NCBI GenBank assembly: GCA_964016885.1
Contig: OZ024741.1
Span: 414,160,001 to 414,224,000 of the forward strand
Reading direction: 5' to 3'
DNA from: Eledone cirrhosa
Taxonomy: Eukaryota
DNA length: 64,000 nucleotides
Shown: in pieces, positions 1-26,615 of the stretch
Layout: every line of letters begins with the position of its first letter
Numbering within the stretch: position 1 is the stretch's first letter
Made by a program: the position numbers and the translations under genes
Notes under the pieces: generated by a model
The model's database searches: none
The model's input: only the letters and a program-made list of their open reading frames with translations
Told to the model about the DNA's origin: nothing

Positions 1-3000
1 AGACACTGCCTATGTTGTTTAATCCTTTCATTACCATATTTCTAATATAAGACACTATCTATGTTGTTTAACCCTTTCATTACCATATTTCTAATGTAAG
101 ACACTGTCTATGTTGTTTAACGCTTTCACTACCATATTTCTAATGTAAGACACTGTCTATGTTGTTTAACCATTTCATTACCATATTTCTAATGTAAGAC
201 ACTGTCTATGTTGTTTAACCCTTCCATTACCATATTTCTAACGTAAGACACTGTCTATATTGTTTAACCCTTTCATTACCATATTTCTAATGTAAGACAC
301 TGTCTATGTTGTTTAACCATTTCATTACCATATTTTTAATGTAAGACACTGTCTATCTTGTTTAACCCTTTCACTACCATATTTCTAATGTAAGACAGTA
401 TCTATGTTGTTTAACCCTTTCATTACCATATTTCTAATGTAAGACACTGTCTATGTTGTTTAACCCTTTCACTACCACATTTCTAATGTAAGACACTGCC
501 TATGTTGTTTAACACTTTCATTACCATATTTCTAATGTAAGAGACTGTCTATGTTGTTTAACCCTTTCATTACCATATTTCTAATGTAAGACACTGTCTA
601 TGTTGTTTAATCCTTCCATTACCATATTTCTAATGTAAGACACTGTCTATATTGTTTAACCCTTTCATTACCATATTTCTAATGTAAGACACTGTCTATG
701 TTGTTTAACCCTTTCATTACCATATTTCTAATGTAAGACACTATCTATGTTGTTTAACCCTTTCATTACCATATTTCTAATGTAAGACACTGTCTATGTT
801 GTTTAACCCTTTCACTACCATATCTCTAATGTAAGACACTGTCTATGTTGTTTAACCCTTCCACTACCATATTTCTAATGTAAGACAACATCTATGTTGT
901 TTAACCCTTTCATTACCATATTTCTAATGTAAGACACTGTCTATGTTGTTTAACCCATTCACTACCATATTTCTAATGTAAGACACTGTCTATGTTGTTT
1001 CATCCTTTCATTACAATATTTCTAATGTAAGACACTGTCTATGTTGTTTAACCCTTTCATTACCATATTTCTAATGTAAGACACTGTCTATGTTGTTTAA
1101 TCCTTCCATTACCATATTTCTAATGTAAGACACTGTCTATGTTGTTTAACCCTTTCACTACCATATTTCTAATGTAAGACACTGTCTATATTGTTTAATC
1201 CTTTCATTACAATATTTCTAATGTAAGACACTGTCTATGTTGTTTAACCCTTTCATTACCATATTTCTAATGTAAGACACTGTCTATGTTGTTTAACCCT
1301 TTCATTACCATATTTCTAATGTAAGACACTGTCTATGTTGTTTAACCCTTCCATTACCATATTACTAATGTAAGACACTGTCTATGTTGTTTAACCCTTC
1401 CATTACCATATTTCTAATGTAAGACACTGTCTATGTTGTTTAACCCTTCCATTACCATATTTCTAATGTAAGACACTGTCTATGTTGTTTAACCCTTTCA
1501 TTACCATATTTCTAATGTAAGACACTGTCTATGTTGTTTAACCCTTCCATTACCATATTTCTAATGTAAGACACTGTCTATGTTGTTTAACCCTTCCATT
1601 ACCATATTTCTAATGTAAGACACTGTCTATATTGTTTAACCCTTTCATTACCATATTTCTAATGTAAGACACTGCCTATGTTGTTTAATCCTTTCATTAC
1701 CATATTTCTAATGTAAGACACTATCTATGTTGTTTAACCCTTTCATTACCATATTTCTAATGTAAGACACTGTCTATGTTGTTTAACGCTTTCACTACCA
1801 TATTTCTAATGTAAGACACTGTCTATGTTGTTTAACCATTTCATTACCATATTTCTAATGTAAGACACTGTCTATGTTGTTTAACCCTTCCATTACCATA
1901 TTTCTAACGTAAGACACTGTCTATATTGTTTAACCCTTTCATTACCATATTTCTAATGTAAGACACTGTCTATGTTGTTTAACCATTTCATTACCATATT
2001 TTTAATGTAAGACACTGTCTATCTTGTTTAACCCTTTCACTACCATATTTCTAATGTAAGACAGTATCTATGTTGTTTAACCCTTTCATTACCATATTTC
2101 TAATGTAAGACACTGTCTATGTTGTTTAACCCTTTCACTACCACATTTCTAATGTAAGACACTGCCTATGTTGTTTAACACTTTCATTACCATATTTCTA
2201 ATGTAAGAGACTGTCTATGTTGTTTAACCCTTTCATTACCATATTTCTAATGTAAGACACTGTCTATGTTGTTTAATCCTTCCATTACCATATTTCTAAT
2301 GTAAGACACTGTCTATATTGTTTAACCCTTTCATTACCATATTTCTAATGTAAGACACTGTCTATGTTGTTTAACCCTTTCATTACCATATTTCTAATGT
2401 AAGACACTGTCTATGTTGTTTAACCATTTCATTACCATATTTCTAATGTAAGACACTGTCTATGTTGTTTAACACTTTCATTACCATATTTCTAATGTAA
2501 GACACTGTCTATGTTGTTTAATCCTTCCATTACCATATTTCTAATGTAAGAGACTGTCTATGTTGTTTAACCCTTTCATTACCATATTTCTAATGTAAGA
2601 CACTGTCTATGTTGTTTAATCCTTCCATTACCATATTTCTAATGTAAGACACTGTCTATATTGTTTAACCCTTTCATTACCATATTTCTAATGTAAGACA
2701 CTGTCTATGTTGTTTAACCCTTTCATTACCATATTTCTAATGTAAGACACTATCTATGTTGTTTAACCCTTTCATTACCATATTTCTAATGTAAGACACT
2801 ATCTATGTTGTTTAACCCTTTCATTACCATATTTCTAATGTAAGACACTGTCTATGTTGTTTAACCCTTTCACTACCATATTTCTAATGTAAGACACTCT
2901 CTATGTTGTTTAACCCTTCCACTACCATATTTCTAATGTAAGACAACATCTATGTTGTTTAACCCTTTCATTACCATATTTCTAATGTAAGACACTGTCT

Positions 3001-5352
3001 ATGTTGTTTAACCCATTCACTACCATATTTCTAATGTAAGACACTGTCTATGTTGTTTAATCCTTTCATTACAATATTTCTAATGTAAGACACTGTCTAT
3101 GTTGTTTAACCCTTCCATTACCATATCTCTAATATAAGACACTGTCTATGTTGTTTAACCCTTCCATTACCATATTTCTAATGTAAGACACTGTCTATGT
3201 TGTTTAACCCTTTCATTACCATATTTCTAATGTAAGACACTGTCTATGTTGTTTAACCCTTTCATTACCATATTTCTAATGTAAGACACTGTCTATGTTG
3301 TTTAACCCTTCCATTACCATATTTCTAATGTAAGACACTGTCTATGTTGTTTAACCCTTCCATTACCATATTTCTAATGTAAGACACTGTCTATGTTGTT
3401 TAACCCTTCCATTACCATATTTCTAATGTAAGACACTGTCTATGTTGTTTAACCCTTTCATTACCATATTTCTAATGTAAGACACTGTCCATGTTGTTTA
3501 ACCCTTCCATTACCATATTTCTAATGTAAGACACTGTCTATGTTGTTTAACCCTTCCATTACCATATTTCTAATGTAAGACACTGTCTATGTTGTTTAAC
3601 CCTTCCATTACCATATTTCTAATGTAAGACACTGTCTATGTTGTTTAACCCTTCCATTACCATATTTCTAATGTAAGACACTGTCTATGTTGTTTAACCC
3701 TTCCATTACCATATTTCTAATGTAAGACACTGTCTATGTTGTTTAACCCTTCCATTACCATATTTCTAATGTAAGACACTGTCTATGTTGTTTAACCCTT
3801 CCAGTACCATATTTCTAATGTAAGACACTGTCTATGTTGTTTAACCCTTCCATTACCATATTTCTAATGTAAGACACTGTCTATGTTGTTTAATCCTTCC
3901 ATTACCATATTTCTAATGTAAGACACTGTCTATATTGTTTAACCCTTTCATTACCATATTTCTAATGTAAGACACTGTCTATGTTGTTTAACCCTTTCAT
4001 TACCATATTTCTAATGTAAGACACTATCTATGTTGTTTAACCCTTTCATTACCATATTTCTAATGTAAGACACTATCTATGTTGTTTAACCCTTTCATTA
4101 CCATATTTCTAATGTAAGACACTGTCTATGTTGTTTAACCCTTTCACTACCATATTTCTAATGTAAGACACTCTCTATGTTGTTTAACCCTTCCACTACC
4201 ATATTTCTAATGTAAGACAACATCTATGTTGTTTAACCCTTTCATTACCATATTTCTAATGTAAGACACTGTCTATGTTGTTTAACCCATTCACTACCAT
4301 ATTTCTAATGTAAGACACTGTCTATGTTGTTTAATCCTTTCATTACAATATTTCTAATGTAAGACACTGTCTATGTTGTTTAACCCTTTCATTACCATAT
4401 TTCTAATGTAAGACACTGTCTATGTTGTTTAACCCTTCCATTACCATATTTCTAATGTAAGACACTGTCTATGTTGTTTAACCCTTTCACTACCATATTT
4501 CTAATGTAAGACACTGTCTATATTGTTTAATCCTTTCATTACAATATTTCTAATGTAAGACACTGTCTATGTTGTTTAACCCTTCCATTACCATATCTCT
4601 AATATAAGACACTGTCTATGTTGTTTAACCCTTCCATTACCATATTTCTAATGTAAGACACTGTCTATGTTGTTTAACCCTTTCATTACCATATTTCTAA
4701 TGTAAGACACTGTCTATGTTGTTTAACCCTTTCATTACCATATTTCTAATGTAAGACACTGTCTATGTTGTTTAACCCTTCCATTACCATATTTCTAATG
4801 TAAGACACTGTCTATGTTGTTTAACCCTTCCATTACCATATTTCTAATGTAAGACACTGTCTATGTTGTTTAACCCTTCCATTACCATATTTCTAATGTA
4901 AGACACTGTCTATGTTGTTTAACCCTTTCATTACCATATTTCTAATGTAAGACACTGTCCATGTTGTTTAACCCTTCCATTACCATATTTCTAATGTAAG
5001 ACACTGTCTATGTTGTTTAACCCTTCCATTACCATATTTCTAATGTAAGACACTGTCTATGTTGTTTAACCCTTCCATTACCATATTTCTAATGTAAGAC
5101 ACTGTCTATGTTGTTTAACCCTTCCAGTACCATATTTCTAATGTAAGACACTGTCTATGTTGTTTAACCCTTTCATTACCATATTTCTAATGTAAGACAC
5201 TGTCTATGTTGTGTAACCCTTCCATTACCATATTTCTAATGTAAGACACTGTCTATGTTGTTTAACCCTTTCATTACCATATTTCTAATGTAAGACACTG
5301 TCTATGTTGTTTAACCCTTCCATTACCATATTTCTAATGTAAGATACTGCCT
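1..5352. repeat. 49-bp tandem satellite (consensus AGACACTGTCTATGTTGTTTAACCCTTTCATTACCATATTTCTAATGTA), ~109 copies, extends beyond window start
   Basis: Direct 49-bp periodicity. Rare variants recur at a 1666-bp (34 x 49) offset, e.g. AGACACTGCC at 1 and 1667, CGCTTTCACT at 121 and 1787. Confidence 0.97.
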
Positions 5353-5553
5353 ATGATTTTCAAATAATTTTGAAAATACTTGAGTATTCTGAGAGATTTA
5401 GTAATACAACTAATGTTCTCATTATTAGTCTTGTATTTGGAATATAACTTAACAAAGTTAAGTTACGTTCCATTATAATAGAGGGTTTTTAGATGAATAT
5501 AAACAGTTCTATATCTTAGAACCAGATGTGGTTTCAAGCTTGGAAAGGGTTAG
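5311..5553. mobile_element. Degenerate TTAA-type (piggyBac-like) MITE whose left end is the last satellite monomer
   Basis: Left end TTAACCCTTCC at 5311; right end GGAAAGGGTTAG at 5542-5553 is its inverted complement. The interior continues without a break from the monomer sequence. Confidence 0.6.
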
Positions 5554-6930: not shown

Positions 6931-7125
6931 TTTGGAAATTTTGGAAATGTCAATGAAATTAACCCCAGTACTTTACCATTTTATTTTCCCCTGAAGGATA
7001 AAAGACAAGAATAATAATTTCTAATGTCTGTTATATTACATCAAGTAATGTTGAACTGAAGAAAGTTTACATTTCTCATGACTAAAGTACTATTATTACC
7101 ACTGAAGTCTCTCTTAATCCTTTAG

Positions 7126-7703
7126 CATTTACATTACTCTATATATACTATTGTATTTTCACAGTAAAGGCTTTACCTCACATAATATCTCACATAACAT
7201 TAACATTACTCTATGTATACTATTGTATTTTCACAGTAAAGGCTTTACCTCACATAATACTTCACATAACAATTACATTACTCTATATATACTATTGTAT
7301 TTTCACAGTAAACGCTTTACCTCACATAATATCTCACATAACATTTACATTACTCTATATATACTATTGTATTTTCACAGTAAAGGCTTTACCTCATATA
7401 ATACCTCGCATAACATTTACATTACTCTATATATACTATTGTATTTTCACAGTAAAGGCTTTACCTCACATAATATCTCACATAACATTTACATTACTCT
7501 ATATATACTATTGTATTTTCACAGTAAAGGCTTTACCTCACATAATATCTCACATAACATTTACATTACTCTATATATACTATTGTATTTTCACAGTAAA
7601 GGCTTTACCTCACATAATATCTCACATAACATTTACATTACTCTATATATACTATTGTATTTTCACAGTAAAGGTTTTACCTCACATAATATCTCACATA
7701 ACA
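7126..7703. repeat. 72-bp satellite block 1 (~8 copies)
   Basis: Unit CATTACTCTATATATACTATTGTATTTTCACAGTAAAGGCTTTACCTCACATAATATCTCACATAACATTTA; 24-aa periodicity in the spurious ORF 7151-7729. Confidence 0.95.
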
Positions 7704-7914
7704 TCTCGTATACGAGAGACGTGTGTTGACGTGTGTGAACAAGCTCGGCTACCGAGTCGGATTTACTTACTCAAAAAGTGAGTTTTGATTAATTTTTTAT
7801 ACTGTAATATACGTTAACCCCTTGCCTTGGTCGTCAAACTTTGAGTTTATTTATTTTCGCCCCTTTTTGGGGCGAATTTTCCAGTTAAAAATTTATTACG
7901 GCAAACTAATAGAA

Positions 7915-9657
7915 ATGGACGGAATTTTCACATCTCATCCTAACGTGAAAGCCACGCCCCCTAAGAAAGGTGATACAGAGAAGCTAGAAGCACAAGGCTC
8001 TAAGTCTTCCCTCCTCACTTCTGCAAAAGAAACATGGAACACGGAATTAAAAGAAAAATTTGTAGAAATGGGTGAAAACCCAGAAAGTCACATAAACGCA
8101 GACAAAAACATCAACGACAATAACAGCAATAGTCACAACACCAACCAAGGAAAAAATAACGATAACACCAAACAAAGTGAACCCACTACTGGTACCTCCT
8201 TTGCACAGGCGGTCCGGAAAACACAAACCTGCAAGCAACTGGACATTACAACTCTGAGAGAAAAGATGAAGGAAGCGAAACAGTATGTAACTTTCAAAGA
8301 AGGAGGAGACTTCACAATCACCTCCCCACAAGAAATCAAAAGAGACACGACGCTAAGAACGATATCTTTCAGAACAATTTCCAACATAACAAGGAAACCA
8401 ACTCAATTATCCCAAAAAGAGATTGAGCTGGTCCTAAAAAATGTGTGGAGTGATATATCGTTCATACAAAAAGGGCCACTCTATGGGAATATAACGGTCC
8501 TAATGAAGGATCAATTGACGGCCAGGAAATACTCTGTGGCACCAATTGTTTCCAAGATATATACATTTTTCCCCACATATTTAGGGAAAAGAACGCAGAA
8601 GATAAGGGTCTCCGGAATCCGGCCAAATGCATGCATTTCCTGGGTACTAACAGGATTTTTAGAAGACGAGGACGGAATCCTCTCAGTAGGAGAAGTCACC
8701 ACAGACGTTTTCGGCGGTTTGAGCGTGGAGGTTCTGGTCCAAATGAGACCAGAACGAATCGCTAGAATACCACAGAGGGTGTCCCTCGATGGAGAAACAT
8801 TTATATATATTTCAGCCGAGGGTAGGAGGCCCATATGTTACTACTGTTCAAGCAGGGGTCATCTAAGGGCTGCTTGTCCTCAATTGACAAAAAAAAAGGC
8901 TCTTTTGCCTACACCCCACACACCACCACCGCCACCACCACCACCACCACCACCTCCACCACCACCACCACAACAACAACAAAAACAACAGGGAAAAATA
9001 ACACAAGACACGGCCCCACCCAAAACAACTCCCAAAACACACACAAATACAACAAAACCCCAAAATACACCACTACCCGACAGCACGGACGAGGACCCAG
9101 CGGAAACGGCACCTAGTGACGAAGAGGGGGAACCCTTCCAACCTGTAAAAAGGAAAAAAAGAAAGCACCACTCGAACATAAACGAAACAAACACACAACC
9201 ACCAACAAAAACAAAACAAACAGAACAAACAAAATCCGCCCCACCCCAAAACATAACACATACAACAAAACGTAAGCACACACAAGAACAACAAACAAAC
9301 ACAACACAAATAAAACAGTATACATACATTAACACAAATAACAAAGAACTAGTAAAAACAATACACAAAGACCCTTTGGTGGAAACTGAAGGGCAATTCT
9401 TTGCAAGCGCGGCCAACAAACCGCATTTAAAAATGATAAGACTCCCAATGGACACCTATGCAAAACTAAGAGAGAACTTTCCTGAGGACGTGGGGAAAAC
9501 ATGTACTCGACCCTATAACCGCGTCCTCTTGAAACGTTTCCCCACCCACACCTCACCAAACACCCCCACTCCACCACAGAACAACACCCCACCAAACAAC
9601 CCCTCCAATACGCCCATGGATATTGTGCAACCTGCTCCTCAGGAGCCGAACAGGTAG
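7915..9657 (+). CDS. LINE ORF1 (gag-like nucleic-acid-binding protein with CCHC zinc knuckle)
   Basis: CYYCSSRGHLRAAC fits CX2CX4HX4C; Pro/Gln/Thr-rich linker; basic KRKKRK. First ATG at 7915 (MDGIFTSH) is conserved in copy 2 at 14389, while the upstream extension is not. Confidence 0.88.
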   Translation: MDGIFTSHPNVKATPPKKGDTEKLEAQGSKSSLLTSAKETWNTELKEKFVEMGENPESHINADKNINDNNSNSHNTNQGKNNDNTKQSEPTTGTSFAQAVRKTQTCKQLDITTLREKMKEAKQYVTFKEGGDFTITSPQEIKRDTTLRTISFRTISNITRKPTQLSQKEIELVLKNVWSDISFIQKGPLYGNITVLMKDQLTARKYSVAPIVSKIYTFFPTYLGKRTQKIRVSGIRPNACISWVLTGFLEDEDGILSVGEVTTDVFGGLSVEVLVQMRPERIARIPQRVSLDGETFIYISAEGRRPICYYCSSRGHLRAACPQLTKKKALLPTPHTPPPPPPPPPPPPPPPPQQQQKQQGKITQDTAPPKTTPKTHTNTTKPQNTPLPDSTDEDPAETAPSDEEGEPFQPVKRKKRKHHSNINETNTQPPTKTKQTEQTKSAPPQNITHTTKRKHTQEQQTNTTQIKQYTYINTNNKELVKTIHKDPLVETEGQFFASAANKPHLKMIRLPMDTYAKLRENFPEDVGKTCTRPYNRVLLKRFPTHTSPNTPTPPQNNTPPNNPSNTPMDIVQPAPQEPNR

Positions 9658-9678
9658 GTCCTTCCTCTTTTAACCAAC

Positions 9679-12600
9679 ATGGCTGATATAAGAGTTGGGT
9701 TTCTGAATGTACGTGGCCTGGGACTGTCTTGGAAACAAGGCAAACTTTTAAACGATCTCAGGTCACATAGAATGGATGTAATGGCTATTTGCGAGTCCAG
9801 GATCAGCAGCGAGCACCAACTGGCGCCCCTCTTCGACGACTTTGAGATCTTCGCATCTCTCTGTCAACCGGGGGGTGGGGGTGGAGTTGTCGTTCTGCTG
9901 CGAAAACACCTGGGCCTCGCCATACAGAAGGTGCACCTGGACCCGGAGGGTCGACTGGTGGTTTTAGACGTCGGCAGTAGTGAAAGTGGAGCCCTTAGAC
10001 TAATAGCTGTGTACGCCCCTTTTTGGGCAGCGCGGCCGGAATACTTCCAACGTCTGGAAACTTTTCTGGGAACGTCCCGCTCCTTGCTTTTAGTGGGGGA
10101 CTGGAATGGTATCCTGGATGCACGTTGGGACTATGTAGGGGCATGTGCCAATAGAGGGGGGTGTAAAAGCCTCAAAAGGTTAATCGGCCGATTTGACCTG
10201 GCCGATAGATATCGACTAGATTTTCCGACTGTACCACTATGGACGTGGACCAATCGCAGTGGAACATCTAGGTCGTACCTAGATAGGGTCCTAGTTAGAG
10301 AGAACGATAGGGACACATTTAGCTGTCCAAAAATGTTCATGGTTGACTATTCGGATCACAAGTTAGTGACCTGCATAGCCAACCTTGATAGAACCCATAG
10401 ACAGGGACCCGGTTACTGGAAGCTGAACTTGTCCTTACCGAGAAGCAAAGCTTACAGTAAACGGATTAGCACGTTAGTTAAGCAGAATTTGACAGGGGCA
10501 ATTGTCAACAACAGGTGGTGGAGCTCTCTTAAGAGAGCAATTAGAATAGAATCGATAGGTTTTAGTCAGGAATTAGCAAGGGATAGGAACAAGACGGAAA
10601 GGGAATTAGTAGATAGAGTAGAAGAGGCGATTAGGAGTGGCAATGTAGCCGGCGTGCTGGCATCAAGAATGGCCTTAGACCAGTTCTTTGAGGTGAAGCA
10701 TGAAGGCTGCGTTGTCAGGAGTAAAATACGTGCTCTGGGTAATGAGGGAGCCAAAGCTGTAAGCTGGGCCCGAGTGACAGAGGCAAAAAGTGGGAACAAG
10801 TCCACGATTCGGTCTTTGAAGGACCAGGATGGGCGTGTGATCCTTGAACCTGGGCAGATGTGTGCGGCCTTTCAGCGGCACTTTGCACGACTGTTCGAGA
10901 GGGGCGGCGCGCCGGGTGAGACTATGGATTTCAATCCATACCTCGACGGTCTGCCGCGCCTCTCGGACGCGGAGGCGAAGTCCTGCGAAAGGACGATTTC
11001 AGCTGCTGAGATAGGGGCGGCGCTGAGCCAATGCGGCAAACGCAAATCCCCGGGTCTCGATGGTCTACCATACGAGCTATATGTAGCGATGCCGGACTTG
11101 TTCTCCGATATCCTCGAAGCGGTCTACTGCAACTGGCAGCAGAACGGGAGAATTCCCAGTTCTGTGACCAAGGGCGTAGTTACGCTGGTGAGGAAGGATG
11201 AGAACAAGGGGGATGACATAAGTAACTTCAGGCCCATAACTCTGCTAAATACAGAGTTAAAGATTTTGGCCAAGGTGTTAGCGAAGAGGTTGGCGCTTGT
11301 CGTTGGAAACCTGGTGGGAGAAGCGCAGACATGCGCAATCCCGTCCAGGTCCATTCACGACAATCTCCACCTTATGCGATACATCATAGAGAGGGTAGGG
11401 AATGAACCCGGCTTTGGTGGGGCCCTGATCAACTTGGATCAATCTAAAGCTTTCGATAGGGTTGACCATCGTTACCTGGATGCGGTGCTCGCGGCGGCAG
11501 GCTTCGGACCCGTTTTCAGGGGTTGGATTGCTGCGATGCACAGCAGCAACGTCTGCTCAAGGGTCAAGGTGAACGGCCACCTCTCGGAGCCGTTCCAAAT
11601 CATGCGATCCATCCGACAGGGATGCCCTCTCTCCTCCCTACTGTATGTGCTGGCTCTTGAGCCACTACTGCGGAAGTTGGAGCGGTTGCAGGGCATCCCT
11701 TTGGAACCGGGATTGCAGAAAGCGGCGTCGGCCTACGCCGATGACGTGACAGTAATGGTGTCGAAAACCTCGCAAATCGGTGAGATCGGCACCTTACTGG
11801 AGGAATATGAAAGGTTTACAGGAGCCAAGCTGAACCGGGACAAGTCCGTCGGTTTGCAACTCGGAACATGGAGAGGCAAACCGATGCCCTCCAACGACGT
11901 CGTCGGACGCTGGACGGAGGGCCCGGTGAAGCTGCTTGGGGTCTGGTTCGGACCAGACCTCCAGGTGGAGAAAAACTGGAACGAGGTAACGGCCAGGGTG
12001 TTTGCACTCACCCAGAAGTGGGCCCAGTGCAAACTATCCCTGAAAGGTCGAGCGGAGGTGGCGAATACTTATATAGCATCCGTCATCTACTACCGCTTGA
12101 CCGTCGTGCCTTGCCCAGTGAAAAGACTCGCCAAAATGGAGTGCGCGCTGTTCCAATTTCTTTGGAACAAGCGGACCCCTTTGGTGAGGAGATCCATCTG
12201 CTGTCAACACCCTTCGAAAGGAGGGCTGGGGATGCCGTGGCTACAGATGCGTAAACACGCATTAAGGCTACGGCACCTCCAGGTATTCCTCACCGGTCAA
12301 CCGGTGTGGGCCCCGTTTGTGAGGCGAGCCTTTCCCAGACTCGTCTCGCTCACCGAGCTGCAATCCTGGGTCAAGCAAAGACCGAGAAAAGTGGGCGACT
12401 GGCACATTGAATGTGCCCAGGCGCTCACGGCCCTCTGGAAAGCGGACCCGGCAATCAGTGGAGACTCCACCTCGACATTCTATAGAGGGTTGGTACGCAG
12501 CAGGTGCGACGATGCTCTCGGAGAAGCTCTAGGCATGGAGGAAGATGAACTGGCCAGTCTGTTCGGTAGGACGTTTGGCCCTGGACCGATGGACAACTTC

Positions 12601-13116
12601 CAAAAGTCCCTGGCTTGGCAGTGCTACCGAGGGGCTCTACCCGTTCGAGACAAGCTCCACAGGCATGGGAGCCTGGGTAGAGATCCTTTGAATAAGATCT
12701 GTCCGAGATGCGTGCATGATGACGAAACCGTTGCGCACGCATTCGTACACTGCCCAGGCATTGCTGACCTGTGGGGCTATGTGGAACGACTACTGTCGAG
12801 GGTGGGACCAATCCGGTTGACCACCGAGTCCATTGTCACGATCAAACCGCCTCCCCCTTTCAAAAACGAAGGAGAGGCGGTTTTTCTCTGTGTGGTAGCC
12901 ATGGCTAAAGAAGTTGTATGGTGGACGAGGCTGAAAGGGCTGAGGTCAGACACCTTTCTCTCCGGCCAACAACTGGTCCCCTTTTTCAAATACCATTTTA
13001 AAAGAAGGATCAGAATGGAGAGAGAGGTGCTCTACCCCAGCAAGTTTTATGAAAGGTGGGTGAAAGTAGGGAGAATGGCCAGAGTGAATGGGTCTTCTCT
13101 CTATATCAGCCTGTAG
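9679..13116 (+). CDS. LINE ORF2: APE-like endonuclease + reverse transcriptase + C-terminal zinc finger (1145 aa)
   Basis: Endonuclease motifs LNVRG, AVYAP, GDWN, SYLDR, SDH. GPGYWKLN is typical of Tx1/L1. RT motifs KSPGLDG, FRPITLLN, DQSKAFDRV, QGCPLS, YADD. C-terminal CPRC...HAFVHC. Confidence 0.96.
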   Translation: MADIRVGFLNVRGLGLSWKQGKLLNDLRSHRMDVMAICESRISSEHQLAPLFDDFEIFASLCQPGGGGGVVVLLRKHLGLAIQKVHLDPEGRLVVLDVGSSESGALRLIAVYAPFWAARPEYFQRLETFLGTSRSLLLVGDWNGILDARWDYVGACANRGGCKSLKRLIGRFDLADRYRLDFPTVPLWTWTNRSGTSRSYLDRVLVRENDRDTFSCPKMFMVDYSDHKLVTCIANLDRTHRQGPGYWKLNLSLPRSKAYSKRISTLVKQNLTGAIVNNRWWSSLKRAIRIESIGFSQELARDRNKTERELVDRVEEAIRSGNVAGVLASRMALDQFFEVKHEGCVVRSKIRALGNEGAKAVSWARVTEAKSGNKSTIRSLKDQDGRVILEPGQMCAAFQRHFARLFERGGAPGETMDFNPYLDGLPRLSDAEAKSCERTISAAEIGAALSQCGKRKSPGLDGLPYELYVAMPDLFSDILEAVYCNWQQNGRIPSSVTKGVVTLVRKDENKGDDISNFRPITLLNTELKILAKVLAKRLALVVGNLVGEAQTCAIPSRSIHDNLHLMRYIIERVGNEPGFGGALINLDQSKAFDRVDHRYLDAVLAAAGFGPVFRGWIAAMHSSNVCSRVKVNGHLSEPFQIMRSIRQGCPLSSLLYVLALEPLLRKLERLQGIPLEPGLQKAASAYADDVTVMVSKTSQIGEIGTLLEEYERFTGAKLNRDKSVGLQLGTWRGKPMPSNDVVGRWTEGPVKLLGVWFGPDLQVEKNWNEVTARVFALTQKWAQCKLSLKGRAEVANTYIASVIYYRLTVVPCPVKRLAKMECALFQFLWNKRTPLVRRSICCQHPSKGGLGMPWLQMRKHALRLRHLQVFLTGQPVWAPFVRRAFPRLVSLTELQSWVKQRPRKVGDWHIECAQALTALWKADPAISGDSTSTFYRGLVRSRCDDALGEALGMEEDELASLFGRTFGPGPMDNFQKSLAWQCYRGALPVRDKLHRHGSLGRDPLNKICPRCVHDDETVAHAFVHCPGIADLWGYVERLLSRVGPIRLTTESIVTIKPPPPFKNEGEAVFLCVVAMAKEVVWWTRLKGLRSDTFLSGQQLVPFFKYHFKRRIRMEREVLYPSKFYERWVKVGRMARVNGSSLYISL

Positions 13117-13429
13117 GTGAAAGAAGAGGAAAAAGCGGAGACGAGGGAAGCACCTACTCTTTGTGCTCCTGAGGAGAAGGGTTACACATTTTTTCCGGGG
13201 TGTGTGCGACCCATGTTAATGCCCCCTCCCTATTGAGGACTTCGTTTGTTGTTGTTATTTCATTGTTATATTTTTGTACTCGTTAATTATATGTAAACTT
13301 CCCCCCTTGTATCTGTCCCTACCTTTTGTGCCCTAGTGGCAAATAAAGAAACCACTCTATATATACTATTGTATTTTCACGGTAAAGCCTTTACCTCACA
13401 TAATATCTCACATTACTCTATATATACTA

Positions 13430-13575
13430 CTAACAGAATGGCCCTGTGTCACTCGGGATTTGCTCTAGGGTTCTTATATATTTGATATATATTTATCCTT
13501 ATCGAGCCTCGTGAAATAAATACGTTTGTTTATATTTTGTTATTGTGTATGCAAAAATATCTGCACACGAATATA

Positions 13576-13621
<46 letters not shown>

Positions 13622-13903
13622 TAACAGATTAAAGTTTAAGCAAAGAATCGCTGCTTTCACCCTTAACGGGGTCTTCTGAAACTATAAAAAAATCAATCTG
13701 TGAACGCAGAAGTCAATATTTTGAAAAACGTTACACACTATATATATATATACACACACACACACTATATATACATATATACACACACACAGCATCATAA
13801 TGTCGAAATGCAGAGAACCAAACATACAGAGATATTATAAGGGTGCAATGTTGTAGCTATGTATCTATCTAAAAAGAGACAGACTAAGAATTATAGAGAG
13901 AGA
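13430..13903 (-). mobile_element. Probable non-autonomous Helitron-like insertion in the satellite
   Basis: Minus-strand end CCCGAGTGACACAGGG-CCATTCTG-TTAG|T resembles the hairpin+CTAG end at 21120-21147. The 5' boundary (TCTCTCTCTATAA) is uncertain. Confidence 0.5.
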
Positions 13904-13921
13904 TCGTTAAATCACTTAATG

Positions 13922-14177
13922 CTATTGTATTTTCAAAGTAAAGGCTTTACCTCACATAATACCTCACATATCATTTACATTATTCTATAAATACTATTGT
14001 ATTTTCACAGTAAAGGCTTTACCTCACATAATATCTCGCATAACATTTACATTACTCTATATATACTATTGTATTTTCACAGTAAAGGCTTTACCTCACA
14101 TAACATTTACATTACTCTATATATACTATTGTATTTTCACAGTAAAGTATTTACCTCACATAATATCTCACATAACA
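13922..14177. repeat. 72/60-bp satellite block between the two LINE copies
   Basis: Same monomer as 7126-7703, including a 60-bp variant lacking a 12-bp internal duplication. Confidence 0.93.
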
Positions 14178-17100
14178 TCTCGTATACGAGAGGCGTGCGT
14201 TGACGTGTGTGAACAAGCTCAGCTACCGAGTTGGATTTACTTACTCAAAAGTGAGTTTTGATTAATTTTTTATACTGTAATATACGTTAACCCCTTGCCT
14301 GGGTCGTCAAACTTAGAGATTATTTATTTTCGCCCCTTTGTTGCGGCGAATTTTCCTTTGAAAAATTTATTACGGCAAACTGATAGAAATGGACGGAATT
14401 TTCACATCTCATCCTAACGAGAAAGCCACGCCCCCTAAGAAAGGTGATACAGAGAAGCTAGAAGCACAAGGCTCTAAGTCTTCCCTCCTCACTTCTGCAA
14501 AAGAAACGTGGAACACGGAATTAAAAGAAAAATTTGTAAAAATGGGTGAAAACCCAGAAAGTCACATAAACGCAGACAAAAACAACAATGACAATAACAG
14601 CAATAGTCACAACACCAACCAAGGAAAAAATAACGATAACACCAAACAAAGCGAACCCACTACTGGTGCCTCCTTTGCACAGGCGGTCCGGAAAACACAG
14701 ACCTGCAAGCAACTGGACATTACAACTCTGAGAGAAAAGATGAAGCAAGCAAAACAGTATGTAACTTTCAAAGAAGGAGGAGACTTCACAATCACCCCCC
14801 CCCCCACAAGAAATCAAAAGAGACACGACACTAAGAACGTTATCTTCCAGAACAATTGCCAATATGACAAGGAAACCAGCTCAATTATCCCAAAAAGAAA
14901 TTGAGCTGGTCCTAAAAAATGTGTGGAGTGATATATCGTTCATACAAAAAGGGCCACTCTATGGGAATATAACGGTGCTAATGAAGGATCAATTGACGGC
15001 CAGGAAATATTCTGTGGCGCCAATTGTTTCCAAGCTACACACATTTTCCCCCACATATTTGGGGAAAAGAACGCAGAAAATAAGAGTCTCCGGAATCCGG
15101 CCAAATGCATGCATTTCCTGGGTACTAACAGGATTTTTAGAAGACGAGGACGAAATCCTTTCAGTAGGAGAAGTCATCACAGACGTTTTCGGCGGTTTGA
15201 GCGTGGAGGTTCTGGTTCAAATGAGACCAGAACGAATAGCTAGAATACCACAGAGGGTGTCCCTCGATAGAGAAACATTTATATACATTTCAGCCGAGGG
15301 TAGGAGGCCCATATGTTACTACTGTTCAAGCAGGGGTCATCTAAGGGCTGCCTGTCCTCAATTGACAAAAAAAAGGCTCTTTTGCCTACACCCCACACAC
15401 CACCACCGCCAGCACCACTACCACCACCACAACAACAACAACATGGAAAAATAACACAAGACACGGCCCCACCCAAAACAACTCCAAAAACACACACAAA
15501 CACAACAAAACCCCAAAATACACCACTACCCGACAGCACGGACGAGGACCCAGCTGAAACGGCACCTAGTGACGAAGAGGGGGAACCCTTCCAACCTGTA
15601 AAAAGGAAAAAAAGAAAGCACCACTCGAACATAAACGAAACAAAGACACAACCACCAACAAAAACAAAACAAACAGAACAAACTAAATCCGCCCCACCCC
15701 AAAACATAACACATACAACAAAACGCAAGCACACACAAGAACAACAAACAAACACAACACAAATAAAACAGTATACATACATTAACACAAATAACAAAGA
15801 ACTAGTAAAAACAATACACAAAGACCCTTCGGTGGAAACTGAAGGGCAATTCTTTGCAAGCGCGGCAAACAAACCGCATTTAAAAATGATAAGACTCCCA
15901 ATGGACACCTATGCAAAACTAAGAGAGAACTTTCCTGAGGACGTGGGGAAAACATGTACTCGACCCTATAACCGCGTCCTCTTGAAACGTTTCCCCACCC
16001 ACACCTCACCAAACACCCCCACCCCACCACAGAACAACACCCCACCAATACGCCCATGGATATTGTGCAACCTGCTCTTCAGGAGCCGAAGAGGAAGGAC
16101 CTTCCTCTTTTAACCAACATGGCTGATATAAGAGTTGGGTGTCTGAATGTACGCGGCCTGGGACTGTCTTGGAAACAAGGCAAACTTTTAAACGATCTCA
16201 GGTCGCATAGAATGGATGTAATGGCTATTTGCGAGTCCAGGATCAGCAGCGAACGCCAACTGGCGCCCCTCTTCGACGACTTTGAGATCTTCGCATCTCT
16301 CTGTCAACCGGGGGTGGGGGTGGAGTTGTCGTTCTGCTGCGAAAACACCTGGGCCTCGCCATACAGAAGGTGCACCTGGACTCGGAGGGTCGACTGGTGG
16401 TTTTAGACGTCGGCAGTAGTGAAAGTGGAGCCCTTAGACTAATTGCTGTGTACGCCCCTTTTTGAGCAGCGCGGCCGGAATACTTCCAACGTCTGGAAAC
16501 TTTTCTGGGAACGTCCCGCTCCTTGCTTTTAGTTGGGGACTGGAATGGTATCCTGGATGCACGTTGGGACTATGTAGGGGCATGTGCCAATAGAGGGGGT
16601 GTAAAAGCCTCAAAAGGTTAATCGGCCGATTTGACCTGGCCGATAGATATCGACTAGATTTTCCGACTGTACCACTATGGACGTGGACCAATCGCAGCAG
16701 AACATCTAGGTCGTACCTAGATAGGGTCCTAGTTAGAGAGAAGGATAGGGACACATTTAGCTGTCCAAAAATGTTCATGGTTGACTATTCGGATCACAAG
16801 TTAGTGACCTGCATAGCCAACCTTGATAGAACCCCTAGACAGGGACCCGGTTACTGGAAGCTGAACTTGTCCTTACTGACAAGCAAAGCTTACAGCAAAC
16901 GGATTAGCATGTTAGTTAAGCAGAGTTTGACAGGGGCAATTGTCAACAACAGGTGGTGGAGCTCTCTTAAGAGAGCAATTAGAATAGAGTCGATAGGTTT
17001 TAGTCAGGAATTAGCAAGGGATAGGAACAAGACGGAAAGGGAATTAGTAGATAGAGTAGAAGAGGCGATTACGAGTGGCAATGTAGCCAGCGTGCTGGCA

Positions 17101-19482
17101 TCAAGAATGGCCTTAGACCAGTTCTTTGATGTGAAGCACGAGGGCTGCGTTGTCAGGAGTAAAATACGTGCTCTGGGTAATGAGGGAGCCAAAGCTGTTA
17201 GCTGGGCCCGAGTGACAGAGGCAAAAAAGTGGGAACAAGTCCACGATTTGGTCTTTGAAGGACCAGGATGGGCGTGTGATCCTTGAACCTGGGCAGATGT
17301 GTGCGGCCTTTCAGCGGCACTTTGCACTACTGTTCGAGAGGGGCGATGCGCCGGGCGAGACTATGGATTTCAATCCATACCTCGACGGTCTGCCGCGCCT
17401 CTCGGACGCGAAGTCCTGCGAAAGGCCGATTTCAGCTGTTGAGATAGGGGCGGCGCTGAGCCAATGCGGCAAACGCAAATCCCCGGGTTTCGATGGTCTA
17501 CCATACGAACTATATGTAGCGATGCCGGACTTGTTCTCCGATATCCTCGAAGCGGTCTACTGCAACTGGCAGCAGAACAGGAGAATTCCCAGTTCTGTGA
17601 CCAAGGGCGTAGTTACGCTGGTGAGGAAGGGTGAGAACAAGGGGGATGACATAAGTAACTTCAGGCCCATAACTCTGCTAAATACAGAGTTAAAGACTTT
17701 GGCCAAGGTGTTAGCGAAGAGGTTGGCGCTTGTCGTCGGAAACCTGGTGGGAGAAGCGCAGACATGCGCAATCCCGTCCAGGTCCATTCACGACAATCTC
17801 CACCTTATGCGATACATCATAGAGAGGGTAGGGAATGAACCCGGCTTTGGTGGGGCCCTGAGCAACTTGGATCAATCTAAAGCTTTCGATAGGGTTGACC
17901 ATTGTTACCTGGATGCGATGCTCACGGTGGAAGGCTTCGGACCCATTTTCAGGGGTTGGATTGCTGCGATGCACAGCAGCAACGTCTGCTCAAGGGTCAA
18001 GGTGAACGGCCACCTCTCGGAGCCGTTCCAAATCATGCGATCCATCCGACAGAGATGCCCTCTCTCCTCCCTTCTGTATGTGCTGGCTCTTGAGCCACTA
18101 CTGCGGAAGTTGGAGCGGTTGCAGGACATCTCTTTGGAACCGGGATTGCACAAAGCGGTGTCGGCCTACGCCGATGACGTGACAGTAATGGTGTCGAAAA
18201 CCTCGCAAATCGGTGAGATCGGCACCTTACTGGAAGAATATGAAAGGTTTACAGGAGCCAAGCTGAACCGAGACAAGTCCGTCGGTTTGCAACTCGGAAC
18301 ATGGAGAGGCAAACCGATGCCCTCCAACGACGTCGTCGGACGCTGGACGGAGGGCCCGGTGAAACTGCTTGGGGTCTGGTTCGGACCACACCTCCAGGTG
18401 GAGAAAAACTGGAACGAGGTAACGGCCAGGGTGTTTGCACTCACCCAGAAGTGGGCCCAGTGCAAACTATCCCTGAAAGGTCGAGCGGAGGTGGCGAATA
18501 CTTATATAGCATCCGTCATCTACTACCGCTTGACACATTGAAAGTGCCCAGGCTCTCACGGCCCTCTGGAAAGCGGACCCGGCAATCAGTGGAGACTCCA
18601 CCTCGACATTCTATAGAGGGTTGGTACGCAGCAGGTGCGACGATGCTCTCGGAGAAGCTCTAGGCATGGAGGAAGATGAACTGGCCAGTGTTCGGTAGGA
18701 CGTTTGGCCCTGGACCGATGGACAACTACCAAAAGTCCCTGGCTTGGCAGTGCTACCGAGGGGCTCTACCCGTTCGAGACAAGCTCCACAGGCATGGGAG
18801 CCTGGGTAGGGATCCTTTGAATATGATCTGTCCGAGATGCGTGCATGACGACGAAACCGTTGCGCACACATTCGTACACTGCCCAGGCATTGCTGACCTG
18901 TGGGGCTATGTGGAACGACTACTGTCGAGGGTGGGACCAATCCGGTTGACCACCGAGTCCATTGTCACGATCAAACCGCCTCCCCCTTTCAAAAACGAAG
19001 GAGAGGCGGTTTTTCTCTGTGTGATAGCCATGGCTAAAGAAGTTGTATGGTGGACGAGGCTGAAAGGGCTGAGGTCAGACACCTTTCTCTCCGGCCAACA
19101 ACTGGTCCCCTTTTTCAAATACCATTTTAAAAGAAGGATCAGAATGGAGAGAGAGGTGTTCTACCCCAGCAAATTTTATGAAAGGTGGGTGAAAGTAGGG
19201 AGAATGGCCAGAGTGAATGGGTCTTCTCTCTATATCAGCCTGTAGGTGAAAGAAGAGGAAAAAGAGGAGACGAGGGAAGCACCTACTCTTTGTGCTCCTG
19301 AGGAGAAGGGTTGCACATTTTTTCCGGGGTGTGTGCGACCCATGTTAATGCCCCCTCCCTATTGAGGACTTCGTTTGTTGTTGTTATATCATTGTTATAT
19401 TTTTGTACTCGTTAATTATATGTAAACTTCCCCCCTTGTATCTGTCCCTACCTTTTGTGCCCTGGTGGCAAATAAAGAAATC
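14178..19482 (+). pseudogene. Tx1-group LINE copy 2: both ends present but inactivated
   Basis: Highly similar to copy 1. Frameshifts split ORF1 (14389, 14864, 15313) and ORF2 (16056, 16771, 17255, 18676). TGG>TGA near 16463. A ~300-bp deletion at ~18533 corresponds to copy 1 ~12102-12402. Confidence 0.93.
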
Positions 19483-20066
19483 ACTCTATATATACTATTG
19501 TATGTTCACAGTAAAGGCTTTACCTCACATAATATCTCACATAACATTTACACTACTCTATATATACTATTGTATTTTCACAGTAAAGCCTTTACCTCAC
19601 ACAACATTTACATTACTCTGTATATACTATTGTATGTTCACAGTAAAGTCTTTACCTCACATAACATTTACACTACTCTATATATACTATTGTATTTTTA
19701 CAGTAAAGTCTTTACCTCACATAACATTTACATTACTCTATATATACTATTGTATTTTCACAGTAAAGTCTTTACCTCACACAACATTTACATTACTCTA
19801 TATATACTATTGTATGTTCACAGTAAAGTCTTTACCTCACATAATATCTCACATAACATTTACACTACTCTATATATACTATTGTATTTTCACAGTAAAG
19901 TCTTTACCTCACATAACATTTACATTACTCTATATATACTATTGTATTTTCACAGTAAAGTCTTTACCTCACACAGCATTTACACTACTCTATATATACT
20001 ATTGTATGTTCACAGTAAAGGCTTTACCACACATAATCTCACATAACATTTACATTACTCTATATA
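19483..20066. repeat. Satellite block dominated by 60-bp variant monomers
   Basis: 20-aa periodicity in ORF 19465-20046; AAAGTCTTTACC and TATGTTCAC variants. Confidence 0.93.
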
Positions 20067-21147
20067 TCATAATCTATAAAGCTCAGTGTGTGGTCATGCT
20101 CCTTTCTTATAGATATCTACGATATAGAATTTCTTCAATTGAAATTTACAATTCAGTATTCGAAATAGTTTCGATTGCGTCTTGGCACATCTCATTTTTT
20201 TAATTTCACCCACAATTACGCAAAAAATAGATAAAACTCAATATTTTACGATTTTTCTCTGTCATTTAAACTGCTAAACTCTTTCCACTACAATTCAAAA
20301 TCTATACAACGTCATACTTTCTGCTACTTTCTCTTTCCAAGCTTGATGGTGATACTGTCCGTTTTACTCTCTCATATCATCTGCTTTTTCCTCTATCTAC
20401 AACCCACACATTTTGCTACTTTCTCTTTTATACTTCAAATTATTACATTTCATACGAAACGACAATTATTCAAAAGCAACAGATACATTTATTCAACAAC
20501 AAGCGATAAATCTTTTTTAAAACCTCTTTTCCAAACGCATACAAACACACTTCAACAACAACAATCTGCCTTTTATAAACAATAATATCCTCTATGAGGT
20601 CACTAACCTGCTAGAAACAGCAGCTAACTCTCCCCCATACCACACCCCTCCCTACTGTCTTAAATTTAGAAAACATATCTTCTATGAGGTCACTAAACCT
20701 GCTAGAAACAGCAGCTAACTCTCCCCCATATCACACCACTCCCTACTGTCTTAAATTTAGAAAACACATATCCTCTATGAGGTTACTAAACCTGCTAGAA
20801 ACAGCAGCTAACTCTCCCTCATATCACAACCCTCCTTACTGTCTTAAATTTAGAAAACACACAGACAACCATGCAGAACAACTCCATCGCAGCTCTGTTG
20901 TTCGGCTGGCATCGTCTACGCGCGTGTTGCGCAAGTACTGTGAAACAAGAAATTTCAACACTTTTTTGCACAGAGATAATATCCATAGGCGAAACTACAA
21001 TTGTCACTGCTGGCGCAGCTCCTGCTTCCAGGTCTGCAATTCATTCACCCAGTGCCTGGCAGACAAAAAAGTGCTGCTATAAAATGGGTGGTGCAACCTA
21101 ACTTTGGTAACTTAATGACCCCGAGCAACGCCGGGCTTTAATGCTAG
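20067..21147 (+). mobile_element. Non-autonomous Helitron
   Basis: Begins TC after A. Ends with GC-rich hairpin CCCGAGCAACGCCGGG (21120-21135) and CTAG (21144-21147). No target-site duplication. Interrupts one satellite monomer at ACTCTATATA|(T)ACTATT. Contains three ~90-bp tandem units at 20586-20860. Confidence 0.8.
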
Positions 21148-21680
21148 AACTATTATATTTTCACAGTAAAGGCTTTACCTCACATGATATCTCACATAAC
21201 ATTTACATTACTCTATAATACTATTGTGTTTTCACAGTAAAGGCTTTACCTCACATAATATCTCACATAACATTTACATTACTCTATATATACTATTGTA
21301 TTTTCACAGTAAAGGCTTTACCTCACATAATATCTCACATAACATTTACATTACTCTATATATACTATTGTATTTTCACAGTAAAAGCTTTACCTCACAT
21401 ATCTCACATAAGATTTACATTACTCTATATATACTATTGTATTTTCACAGTAAAGGCTTTACCTCACATAACTCACATAACATTTACATTACTCTATATA
21501 TATACTATTGTATTTTCACAGTAAAGGCTTTACCTCACATAATATCTCACAGCATTTACATTATTCTATATATACTATTGTATTTTCACAGTAAAGGCTT
21601 TACCTCACATAATATCTCACAGCATTTACATTATTCTATATATATTGTATTTTCACAGTAAAGGCTTTATTTTACATAAT
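21148..21680. repeat. 72-bp satellite final block
   Basis: Same monomer; decays into unique sequence leading to the right TIR. Confidence 0.93.
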
Positions 21681-21849
21681 TATCCATGTAATTTTGATGT
21701 CACTTATTTTGACAACAATACCTTAATATAGATATGAGTAGCCAGTTACAGCTAGTTTGAACAGAAAGAGGTGAGAGAATTCTGGCCGGATATGGCCGGT
21801 TTGAATGCTAAAGGGTTAAGCCAGAAGGATTGTGAGGATGATGTTAATG

Positions 21850-23599: not shown

Positions 23600-26500
23600 G
23601 AAAACACTGTACCCACAACAACTGACAATAAAGAAACTGAAAAAACTCTGGGAAACTAAATCAGAAAAACCTGCCATCCCCTGCACATAATCATAGACTG
23701 GAATCAAGGTACAAATTGTTGTCCTTGAATGCACGTAGTCTATGCAATAAGATTCATCTTTTTGACTCCTACGTCAAAAGTATCAACCCTAACTCCATTA
23801 CAGTCACGGAAATTTGGGCACATCCCTTACTCTGTGATGGGGTTTTCAGCATAACTGGCTACAACCTGTTTCGTTAAGACCGCATTAATCGTTGTGGTGG
23901 TGGTGTAATGGTCTACATTCGGTCAAATTTGTCGGCAATTCCTTGTGTTGATTTGAACCAATCACAACAGGAAGTTTTTTTCTGTGATATACATATGACC
24001 ATGTGAACACTGCTACTTGGAGTCGTTTACCATCTCCCAAATTACCATCAGGACACTCAACTTTGTGAAATCCTCAGATTTGCTGCCAGGAAAACAGCCA
24101 CTTATGTTTTTATTGCAGGAGACTTCAATCACCCTGAGATTGAATGGGAAACCTTTCGTTGGCCGCTAAGTGCAAATGACTTCCTTGAGCTAGTGCTGGA
24201 CTCAAATTGGTCCCAAGTAGTCACCTCCCCAACAAGAGGTGACAACACTTTGGACCTACTCTTCACCACTACTCCTGAAGCGGTCATTAGTGTTACTGCT
24301 GAGGAACCTTTAGGTGACTCTGATCATGCTATGATCATTGCCAATCTATCCCTCATGGGCAGTAACAAGAACCACAACCATCTCCAAACTGCTCACTTTG
24401 ACTGGAATAAAGCAGACTGGAACTGTTACTGCACCAAGTTGCAACAGCCAAATTGGCTTGAGTTCTACGACTCTGGAGATGTCAACACTGTACTCCAGAA
24501 CATCCTGAGCTCAATATGGACAGCATGTGCAGCATCGGTGCCATGTAAGCGGAAAAAACATCCCAAAAGTGCAATTTGGGAGACTGCAGCAGTCCGTCTT
24601 GCCAGAAAAGAACGTCGCAATGCTGAGCGTGAGTACAAACTGCACAAATCAGACATCAATAGGAAGAGGCGAAATAAATCGTCCAACCACCTCAAACAGG
24701 TGACAAAAAAGGCAGTGCTTCAATTTGAGCAGCGCATAGCAACCAGCCCTGACAGTAAGGTGATCTGGAAGTATGTTCACTCAAAGCAGAGGCCTCACTC
24801 TCCAGTTGGTCCTCTTCACAATCCCCACACAAGCCAGGTTACTGATGACCCCAAGGAATGTGCAGAGCTCTTTGCTGAATGCTATGCAGGCATTTTCACT
24901 ATTGAAGACCAGACTGTACCGTCTCCACCACATATGACACCGGATTCTATTACAACTATGGAATTTACACCTGCAATGCTGCGACATCACCTTAAAAATA
25001 AACGCAACCATGCCTCTCCTGGTCTTGATGGTGTTATGTACCTGCTTCTTAAACGTGGTGGGTACTTCCTTCTGCACCAGCTATCACACTTCTTCCAATT
25101 CTGTCTGAACAACGGTGCTACTCCAGAACAGTGGAAAACTGCCAGTGTTCAAAAAGGGTGACCACACATCACCTGTGAACTATCGTCCAGTCAGTCTTAC
25201 TAGTTGCATTGCCAAACTGATGGAATCCTGTGTCAGAGAAACACTTTGGAAATTCTGGAACTCTCAGAGTCTTATCCGGCCCTCGCAATTTGGATTTATC
25301 CCCAACTCCAGCTGCTGTGATCAACTTATTGAGTTTCTTGAAGACATCACCGTGATCACTGATGGCGGCTCATGGGTGGATGTTGTTTACCTTGACTTTG
25401 CTAAGGCTTTCAATTCTGTGCCACACAAAAGGCTTATGGCAAAACTCTCTGCAATGGGTGTGAAGGATGATCTTTTTAACTGGTTGAAGTCCTTTGTTCT
25501 CAGTCGAAGAGAGGTAGTCACGGTTCTGGGACAGCATTCCTCACCATATGAGATGTCATCTGGTGTACTACAGGGATCTGTTCTTGGCCCCCTTTTGTTT
25601 GTGGCATATATTAATGACATAGATGCCAACTTAAAGAATGCCACAGTACTAAAGTACGCAGATGACATCAAGCTGTACCTTGAGATAAAAAGGACAGATC
25701 CTGAACACTATAGATCTTGCTTGCAGTCTGACCTGGACACAATGCAACGATGGATCTCAGACTGGCAACTCAAGCTAGCTGTGGACAAGTGCACCACCAT
25801 GCATTTTGGGAGTAAAAACCCAGCGTCCACATCACTAATATCAAGAAGTCTTCTTGTGAACGTGACCTGGGCATTACGGTCAGCAGCAATTTGTGTTGGA
25901 CGAAGCACGTCTCTAAAATTGTCAAGAGGGCCGAGGGTGTCTTAGCATCACTCAGCAAGACCTTTGTCAGCCGCTCTCCAGCTATTTATTTAAGGCTGTA
26001 CATGGCTATGGTGCGGCCACACTTAGAATTTGCATCACCAGTCTGGAACCCTATCTTGCTCAGAACATTGACCGCCTGGAAACTGTTCAGAGACGTGCAA
26101 CCAAGCGAATACCCTCCATCAGGCCTCTACCATACTCTGAACGCCTTGCTTCCCTGGGCATGGATACATTGAAGCTCCGACGCCTGGCAACTGACTTGGT
26201 AAACACCCACAAGATTATTAACCATCTTGACAACAACAACCCTGAGTACCTTTTTGATTTCCATGTGTCTAACACACGTGGGCATGCCCACACCACAAAG
26301 TCAGAAAACAGCATAGTTCCCATGACTTTCGGAAACATTTTTTCACGCTCAGAGTTGCTGAAGCATGGAACACACTACCTGCATCAGTCGTTAGCTGTCG
26401 AGAGATTGCATCCTTTAAAACCTCCATGCTTCCTGAGATTCGCCAACACTACACCTAATGTTCCACCTCCATACACATACACACATGTATATCATGACTC

Positions 26501-26615
26501 ATACACTATTCACTTCCCTGACATTTGTGTATTATTCTATGTACTATACATGCACCTTTGACGAGTTGTAGTGCACCTGAGCACTTTACACAATAATTTC
26601 ATTATTATTATTATA
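23600..26615 (+). pseudogene. Decayed CR1-like LINE ORF2 (APE endonuclease + RT) with (ATT)n tail
   Basis: LNARSL, AGDFN, PTRGDNTLDL, SDH, NYRPVSLTS, YLDFAKAF, QGSVLGPLLF, YADDIKLY and RPHLEFASPVWNP are spread over frameshifted ORFs with stops. Ends AATAATTTC(ATT)4. Confidence 0.9.

Follow-up and report, generated by a model that had tools for sequence, protein, structure and literature searches.

In Xenopus laevis, the APE LINE Tx1L, a member of the Tx1 group, inserts specifically into the non-autonomous piggyBac element Tx1D (PMC4494074, PMC1950540), and the Tx1 families Tx1-Mar, Keno, Kibi and Koshi have been described as preferring Mariner-N4, U2 snRNA genes, (TC)n and (TTC)n, respectively (PMC4494074). 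In R1A of the melanogaster type, full-length copies show a 9-bp target deletion and truncated copies have target-site duplications (TSDs), and upstream target sequence on the element RNA has been proposed to anneal to the site (PMC2718515). A similar carried upstream target has been proposed for many R2 families, with a 7-bp deletion in springtail R2 (PMC3774820), and the stretch carried on R1A and R2 RNA measures 6-27 nt (PMC2718515, PMC3774820). In addition, Hebe of Adineta vaga is a subtelomeric LINE that lacks 5' truncations and is inactivated by internal deletions (PMC2861651). Thirteen recently active L1-Tx1 families have been reported from an octopus, in a paper whose main text does not use the word "target" (PMC13282606).

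Here, we analyzed a stretch of 64,000 nucleotides from Eledone cirrhosa (the window), in which two LINE copies lie within a tandem repeat. The explanation that we favor with good confidence, on the basis of sequence comparisons, is that a young, likely Tx1 LINE inserts at CATT^ACTCT of a MITE repeat, and that its RNA, starting about 24 bases upstream, fixes the 5' junction by annealing to the previous monomer.

The target repeat and the two window copies

The surroundings of the LINE copies had been described as a satellite in the original prediction; they are indeed a repeat array, which proved to be the internal tandem repeat of a TTAA-flanked MITE with a basic size of about 220 bp, spanning 7118-21815 in the window (Table 1). 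The terminal inverted repeats (TIRs) of the MITE begin with CCC and are flanked by TTAA, as in non-autonomous piggyBac elements. From 14 of 25 fetched MITE left ends the right TIR was reached within 1.5 kb (TTAA at 12), and most of these 14 complete MITEs were 196-221 bp long with one monomer. A search for piggyBac transposase (PF13843) found intact open frames of 561 aa in the same genome, and ends matching the MITE bound 14 of the 20 PF13843 loci fetched, indicating that they are shared with autonomous piggyBac. The LINE target is a repeat within a non-autonomous piggyBac MITE. It is not an snRNA or tRNA gene, as an Rfam scan of 5300-27500 returned three sub-threshold chance matches and no ribozyme or RNA gene.

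Table 1. Coordinates of the features discussed, in window positions
Feature	Position	Strand	Remarks
TTAA target duplication, left of piggyBac-type MITE	7114..7117	.	
Left TIR of MITE	7118..7135	+	Runs into first monomer; 1 change vs usual CCCTTTAGCATT end; same end as intact piggyBac copies
8 monomers of 72-bp internal repeat	7136..7703	+	Final one shortened to 64 bp
Target-derived 5' head, copy 1	7680..7703	+	Monomer positions 41-64; probably carried by element RNA
LINE copy 1	7704..13353	+	5650 bp; ORF1 and ORF2 intact; two identical copies elsewhere
ORF1 of copy 1	7915..9657	+	580 aa; one putative zinc knuckle of CCHC type at aa 307-323; Pro/Gln/Thr-rich C-terminal half
ORF2 of copy 1	9679..13116	+	1145 aa; APE endonuclease aa 10-227, RT 512-756 (YADD), zf-RVT 976-1032
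AATAAA, copy 1	13343..13348	+	Five bases before 3' junction
Monomers separating copies 1 and 2	13354..14177	+	Broken by unrelated insertion, ~13430-13918
Target-derived 5' head, copy 2	14154..14177	+	
LINE copy 2	14178..19482	+	5305 bp; older; both ORFs broken
Monomers downstream of copy 2	19483..21680	+	72- and 60-bp types; broken by Helitron-like insertion 20067-21147
MITE body and right TIR	21681..21815	+	
TTAA target duplication, right of MITE	21816..21819	.	

Exact target sites number 37,901 within arrays and 8,882 behind a TIR in the 3.0-Gb assembly (the window lies on contig C2), set against about 340 elements, so that about 1% of the sites are occupied. Of the readings considered, it is thus the least probable that the LINE itself produced the arrays as tails or termini. 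The head does travel with the element, as the initial bases of the 3' flank probably do, but these intact monomer junctions and MITE left ends far outnumber the elements, and among the MITEs behind the 25 fetched left ends many contain just one or two monomers without a LINE. The earlier suggestion that the repeat is part of the element's own termini therefore survives only for some 24 nt, which likely belong to the 5' terminus; the arrays pre-exist as target.

Several other repeats were observed in and around such arrays. The insertion at 20067-21147 has a 5' TC and a 3' hairpin followed by CTAG, and the same start, reversed, lies upstream of locus L072. The insertion at 13430-13918 starts with CTAACAG and recurs at the same monomer position in locus L196; it resembles a reversed Helitron 3' end and is possibly a second element favoring the 72-bp repeat. 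At L077, the base used by the LINE family is also the site of an insertion in a 43-bp variant array of this MITE's start. At positions 1-5355, a 49-bp satellite unit holds TTAA and terminal-repeat sequence near the end of another piggyBac family (L289, L291, L293), and satellites in the window seem to grow from piggyBac ends. Long arrays of 23-bp and 42-bp satellites occupy 36534-51065 and 53429-64000.

The junctions of the two LINE copies are as originally described. Both join the repeat at the same base (5' junction strings at 7693 and 14167, 3' strings at 13342 and 19471), with copy starts 6474 bp apart; neither has a poly(A), AATAAA being followed by GAAA, two pyrimidines and ACTCT; and TTTACATT is missing relative to the monomer (8 bp, or 7 if the shared first T is counted). 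The true 5' end of the element, however, likely lies about 24 bases upstream of the junction as first drawn. In ORF1, a CX2CX4HX4C motif at aa 308-321 gave a weak Pfam match (PF00098, 16.9 bits, below the cut-off), and ORF2 contains PF03372, PF00078 and PF13966, corresponding to an N-terminal APE endonuclease, a reverse transcriptase (RT) and a C-terminal zinc-binding motif.

The alternative that one insertion was followed by tandem duplication is contradicted by the relationships of the two copies, which differ at 136 of 5299 aligned bases (2.6%) and by 12 indels, one of them a 302-bp loss. Copies on two other chromosomes match copy 1 exactly, and its median distance to the 57 others aligned is 0.12%; copy 2 is at least 2.4% from every copy compared. 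In the alignment with family copies, no private column was shared by copies 1 and 2. These distances and the lack of a shared private mutation indicate independent insertions; the variants of their flanking monomers also differ. Further downstream, a decayed RT-bearing element in three frames with a YADD motif (24007-26561) is probably another LINE.

Site specificity across the genome

All of the best 30 matches to the 3' end ran into the monomer start, and all of the best 30 matches to the 5' end lay in the repeat, 29 of them ending in CATAACA. As these first samples were ranked by identity, counts ordered by position were added, and again 30/30 5' ends lay in the repeat. The 40 elements fetched around 3' matches were all full length, and these paired elements, on 19 contigs, have both junctions in common, in support of the predicted target-specific, Tx1-like family. 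The 3'-end motif has 447 matches in the genome, of which 340 are followed by the exact target, which is not attributable to chance given a site density of only about 1 in 10^5 strand positions. Of the other 107 matches, 48 stand in the first 100 listed, and 40 of these were sampled: 39 belonged to other families (72-85% identical, or unaligned at the end) and the remaining one was a family member on target with a single base changed, so that no off-target family copy was seen among these 40. Unrelated flanks were likewise not found when genomic copies were collected as originally suggested; 97 of 98 family 3' ends, in a sample partly chosen on the downstream target flank, enter the monomer start, and the lone exception keeps the first 9 bases of the monomer and has its 5' end on target. 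At the other end, the 5' start motif has 286 matches, and a separate pattern including 23 upstream repeat bases has 280.

An unbroken run could be followed to the left TIR from 43 of 104 5' junctions and to the right TIR from 31 of 99 3' junctions, counts that are limited by locus length, and the outer flanks differed in every case. Both ORFs are open in 26 of the 58 full-length copies examined. The family is young and strictly site-specific, occupying one site in one orientation throughout the genome, within many distinct copies of the MITE.

Spread from one or a few insertions, through tandem or segmental duplication or through piggyBac mobilizing a MITE that contains the LINE, is highly improbable and is contradicted for most copies. 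Two loci (L075/L076) are indeed identical out to their ends, and tandem clusters contain near-identical copies, but insertions occur as early in the array as the 1st monomer and as late as the 29th, truncated copies that differ in breakpoint lie on target, and the window copies have no private change in common. As no two loci combine a common MITE interior with different outer flanks, there is no sign of piggyBac moving the composite.

On the three largest contigs (C1-C3), 52/52 on-target copies lie within 10% of a contig end, unlike MITE left ends, which are common further inside; on C4 the count is 0/4. Head-to-tail clusters of 5-6 elements, several of them one 64-bp monomer apart, were found at C10:40.72-40.75 Mb and C1:4.22-4.26 Mb.

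The 5' junction and a proposed mechanism

A listed 5' end could be assigned to 86 of the first 100 on-target 3' ends, and the other 14, when fetched, comprised nine variant 5' ends and five truncated copies; the 5' end is thus kept in 95/100. All five truncated copies, being drawn from the on-target list, are on target, with different breakpoints. Four of the five keep TTTACATT and have TSDs of 2, 6, 9 and 13 bp, of which the 2-bp one is weak, indicating that the 7-8-bp deletion belongs to full-length joining. The fifth (L202) is without the 7 bases and may represent a head followed by internal loss. Two truncated copies of sister families have 19-bp TSDs. One truncated copy (L203) shows an inverted 5' segment and foreign sequence, as in L1 twin priming.

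Because the target monomers are polymorphic, unlike homogenized rDNA, the genome records what happened to the last ~24 bases of the flank, namely their replacement. At monomer positions 41-64, 11 of 94 adjacent monomers carry a variant, compared with 43 of 82 next ones out (p 4e-9), whereas at positions 1-40 the two are alike (58/94 and 54/82); six of 100 junctions, all with a monomer upstream, were left unparsed in this profile. Similarly, variants of the local array, defined as present in at least 75% of near neighbors and counting the short-monomer type, were carried over into the adjacent monomer in 18 of 21 cases at positions 1-36 and in 0 of 7 at 41-64, small counts from non-independent cases (the 7 come from 6 loci). 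In L095, 29/29 parsed neighbors are of the short type and the adjacent unit is of the long type; in this locus, as in L080 and L073, the adjacent monomer is a chimera that keeps the local variants at 1-36 and has the fixed form at 41-64. The boundary at which the head starts falls between about -29 and -21, and since the flank is overwritten up to that boundary, the RNA is inferred to begin there. The element RNA likely carries about 24 bases of upstream target, which would anneal during 5' joining. A head inserted without annealing was seen at 0 of about 100 junctions. Odd-length adjacent monomers occur at six 5' junctions.

In the original prediction the APE endonuclease was taken to target this monomer, and it may pick the site alone. 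A rival to the carried head is that the endonuclease makes both cuts by itself, the top strand being cut 7-8 bases upstream, and needs a perfect match at 41-64, with no target on the RNA. The junctions and the adjacent monomer would then be uniform as well, and for melanogaster-type R1A the top strand has indeed been proposed to be cut upstream (PMC2718515). We consider this rival unlikely, as the adjacent monomer is chimeric even where almost no neighbor has the fixed form (the same three loci), the truncated copies indicate downstream cuts, and an upstream cut could coexist with a carried head, as in R1A.

It is very unlikely that the apparent deletion is a 64-bp TSD hidden in the tandem array. 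Head-to-tail elements lie exactly 64 bp apart, and flanking monomers are identical at L201 and L070, L201 having identical five-variant monomers on both sides in what looks like a duplication of 40-50 bp. However, only 6/44 informative pairs are identical, and over positions 1-40 the flanking monomers are identical in 17/55 cases, as against 15/47 and 18/48 for ordinary neighbors. A 64-bp TSD is therefore contradicted as a general rule; rare events of this kind may occur.

Neither a promoter nor a ribozyme setting the RNA start was identified, and for the 5' end Rfam contained no ribozyme match at E up to 1. A nested stem-loop between the head and the 5'UTR scored z -2.1 and -2.5, but as strong z-scores were obtained in only 2 of 11 comparable 5' ends, the structure is no more than a lead. 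Sister families conserve an AGACGTG that resembles a DPE. Drosophila DPE spacing would put the RNA start at -14, which falls short of the -21 to -29 boundary, and this motif was accordingly not adopted as a DPE setting the start.

Returning to the annealing of a carried head, we propose the following sequence of events. By analogy with target-primed reverse transcription (TPRT), the APE domain would nick the bottom strand at the monomer boundary. Polyadenylation cleavage after AATAAA would fall in the downstream monomer, and the RNA, extending past AATAAA into that monomer, may pair at the nick, so that poly(A) is not copied. The two bases before ACTCT at the 3' end are inherited with an internal marker: of the 100 ends listed, 17 read "TT", and every one of these has the same internal G. 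Judging from the truncated copies, the top strand would be opened 2-13 bases downstream, with short TSDs arising if the head is not reached. Full-length copies have positions 41-64 overwritten and lack 7-8 bases, which would result from annealing of the cDNA to the target and flap trimming, the deletion being inherited in the RNA. The top strand would be either cut upstream, as proposed for R1A, or cut downstream and then trimmed.

Relatives, a possible target shift and comparison with known systems

Among named proteins, the closest to ORF2 comes from Argonauta hians, at 68% across the RT region. In phmmer searches with ORF2, long fish proteins that are TX1-named or related scored 297-350 bits and a partial one 221, against 184 for human L1 ORF2p and 56-104 for plant L1; the TX1 names of the fish proteins are automatic annotations. 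A quick RT tree, built with no vertebrate L1 row, placed ORF2 with the TX1-named fish proteins and apart from plant L1 (SH-aLRT 93), on an invertebrate branch of its own that is separate from the fish proteins; none of the tree rows was positively identified as Keno, Kibi or Koshi. ESM Atlas matches were to unnamed EN-RT clusters only, and a cluster look-up gave no informative names either. The RT placement favors Tx1 over L1.

Sister families share the terminal motif (1207 matches of the motif followed by a non-A base), and 18 of the 30 matches fetched finish in TATC repeats. In the C-terminal tree, which was thinned to five family rows and lacked most of the near-identical TATC rows, the family nests among (TATC)n-flanked sisters (UFBoot 97 with L223/L234), with more distant TATC families outside; in an RT tree with these sisters it is sister to the closer TATC group, the exact sister differing from that in the C-terminal tree. 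This nesting suggests that the family descends from ancestors associated with (TATC)n and has since switched target. At least three (TATC)n-flanked sister families, often in tandem, were observed (L131-L160, L212-L250), several starting with a hairpin just before the conserved AGACGTG, and rearranged or inverted repeats built from sister 3' ends occur at L143-L146, L149-L151 and L155-L156.

TCTATNTAT is present at one and the same offset in the MITE repeat and in the (TATC)n targets, and the hairpin-loop region of the endonuclease is nearly the same in the family and these sisters. It is conceivable, though rather doubtful, that the switch was made mainly by the RNA, with an endonuclease that still reads a loose TCTATNTAT core and target sequence on both RNA ends that selects the site and rewards complete cDNAs. 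If so, altering the flanks of such a LINE would allow it to be retargeted, and the head-to-5'UTR stem-loop would set the RNA start.

Each ingredient of this system has precedent. In the literature searched, with Repbase and most subscription papers outside that search, we found no description of the LINE family or its target, nor of the combination, in this host group, with a visible target switch. The family would represent a second, probably independent, Tx1-like LINE with a non-autonomous piggyBac as safe haven, here in a mollusc. Second-strand priming is the least understood step of LINE integration, and the overwritten flank offers unusually direct evidence for the model in which it proceeds by cDNA-target annealing. 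In addition, a young, ~95% full-length family beside close sisters with another target forms a natural pair for mapping specificity shifts in APE LINEs, and the family is a candidate for site-specific insertion tools.

Among the systems outlined above, Hebe resembles the present family in that 5' truncations, absent there, are rare here; unlike it, Hebe belongs to the Jockey clade, has a poly(A) tail and 7-12-bp TSDs, and is not site-specific. The likeness to R1A and R2 lies in a precise short deletion in full-length copies and TSDs on truncated ones, and is one of operation and not of membership: those elements belong to the R1 and R2 clades, reside in 28S rDNA and are co-transcribed with rRNA, whereas the element here is Tx1-like and resides in a dispersed mobile repeat. 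Unlike R2 with upstream ribozyme cleavage, the family has no HDV-like ribozyme detected by Rfam, and nearly all copies keep their 5' end; junctions with unannealed heads, as shown by R1A and R2, are absent from those sampled here.

Within the Tx1 group, the (TATC)n flanks of the sisters recall the families that prefer microsatellites, and Tx1-Mar differs in its target and in a described preference that is much less strict than the specificity observed here. Tx1L in Tx1D offers a parallel, as both families target a non-autonomous piggyBac. Insertion of Tx1L reportedly duplicates about 23 bp of target within an internal repeat, unlike the 7-8-bp loss in full-length copies here. Given the octopod host, and ORF2 on an invertebrate branch separate from the TX1-named fish proteins, the targeting of piggyBac elements in the two cases is probably convergent.
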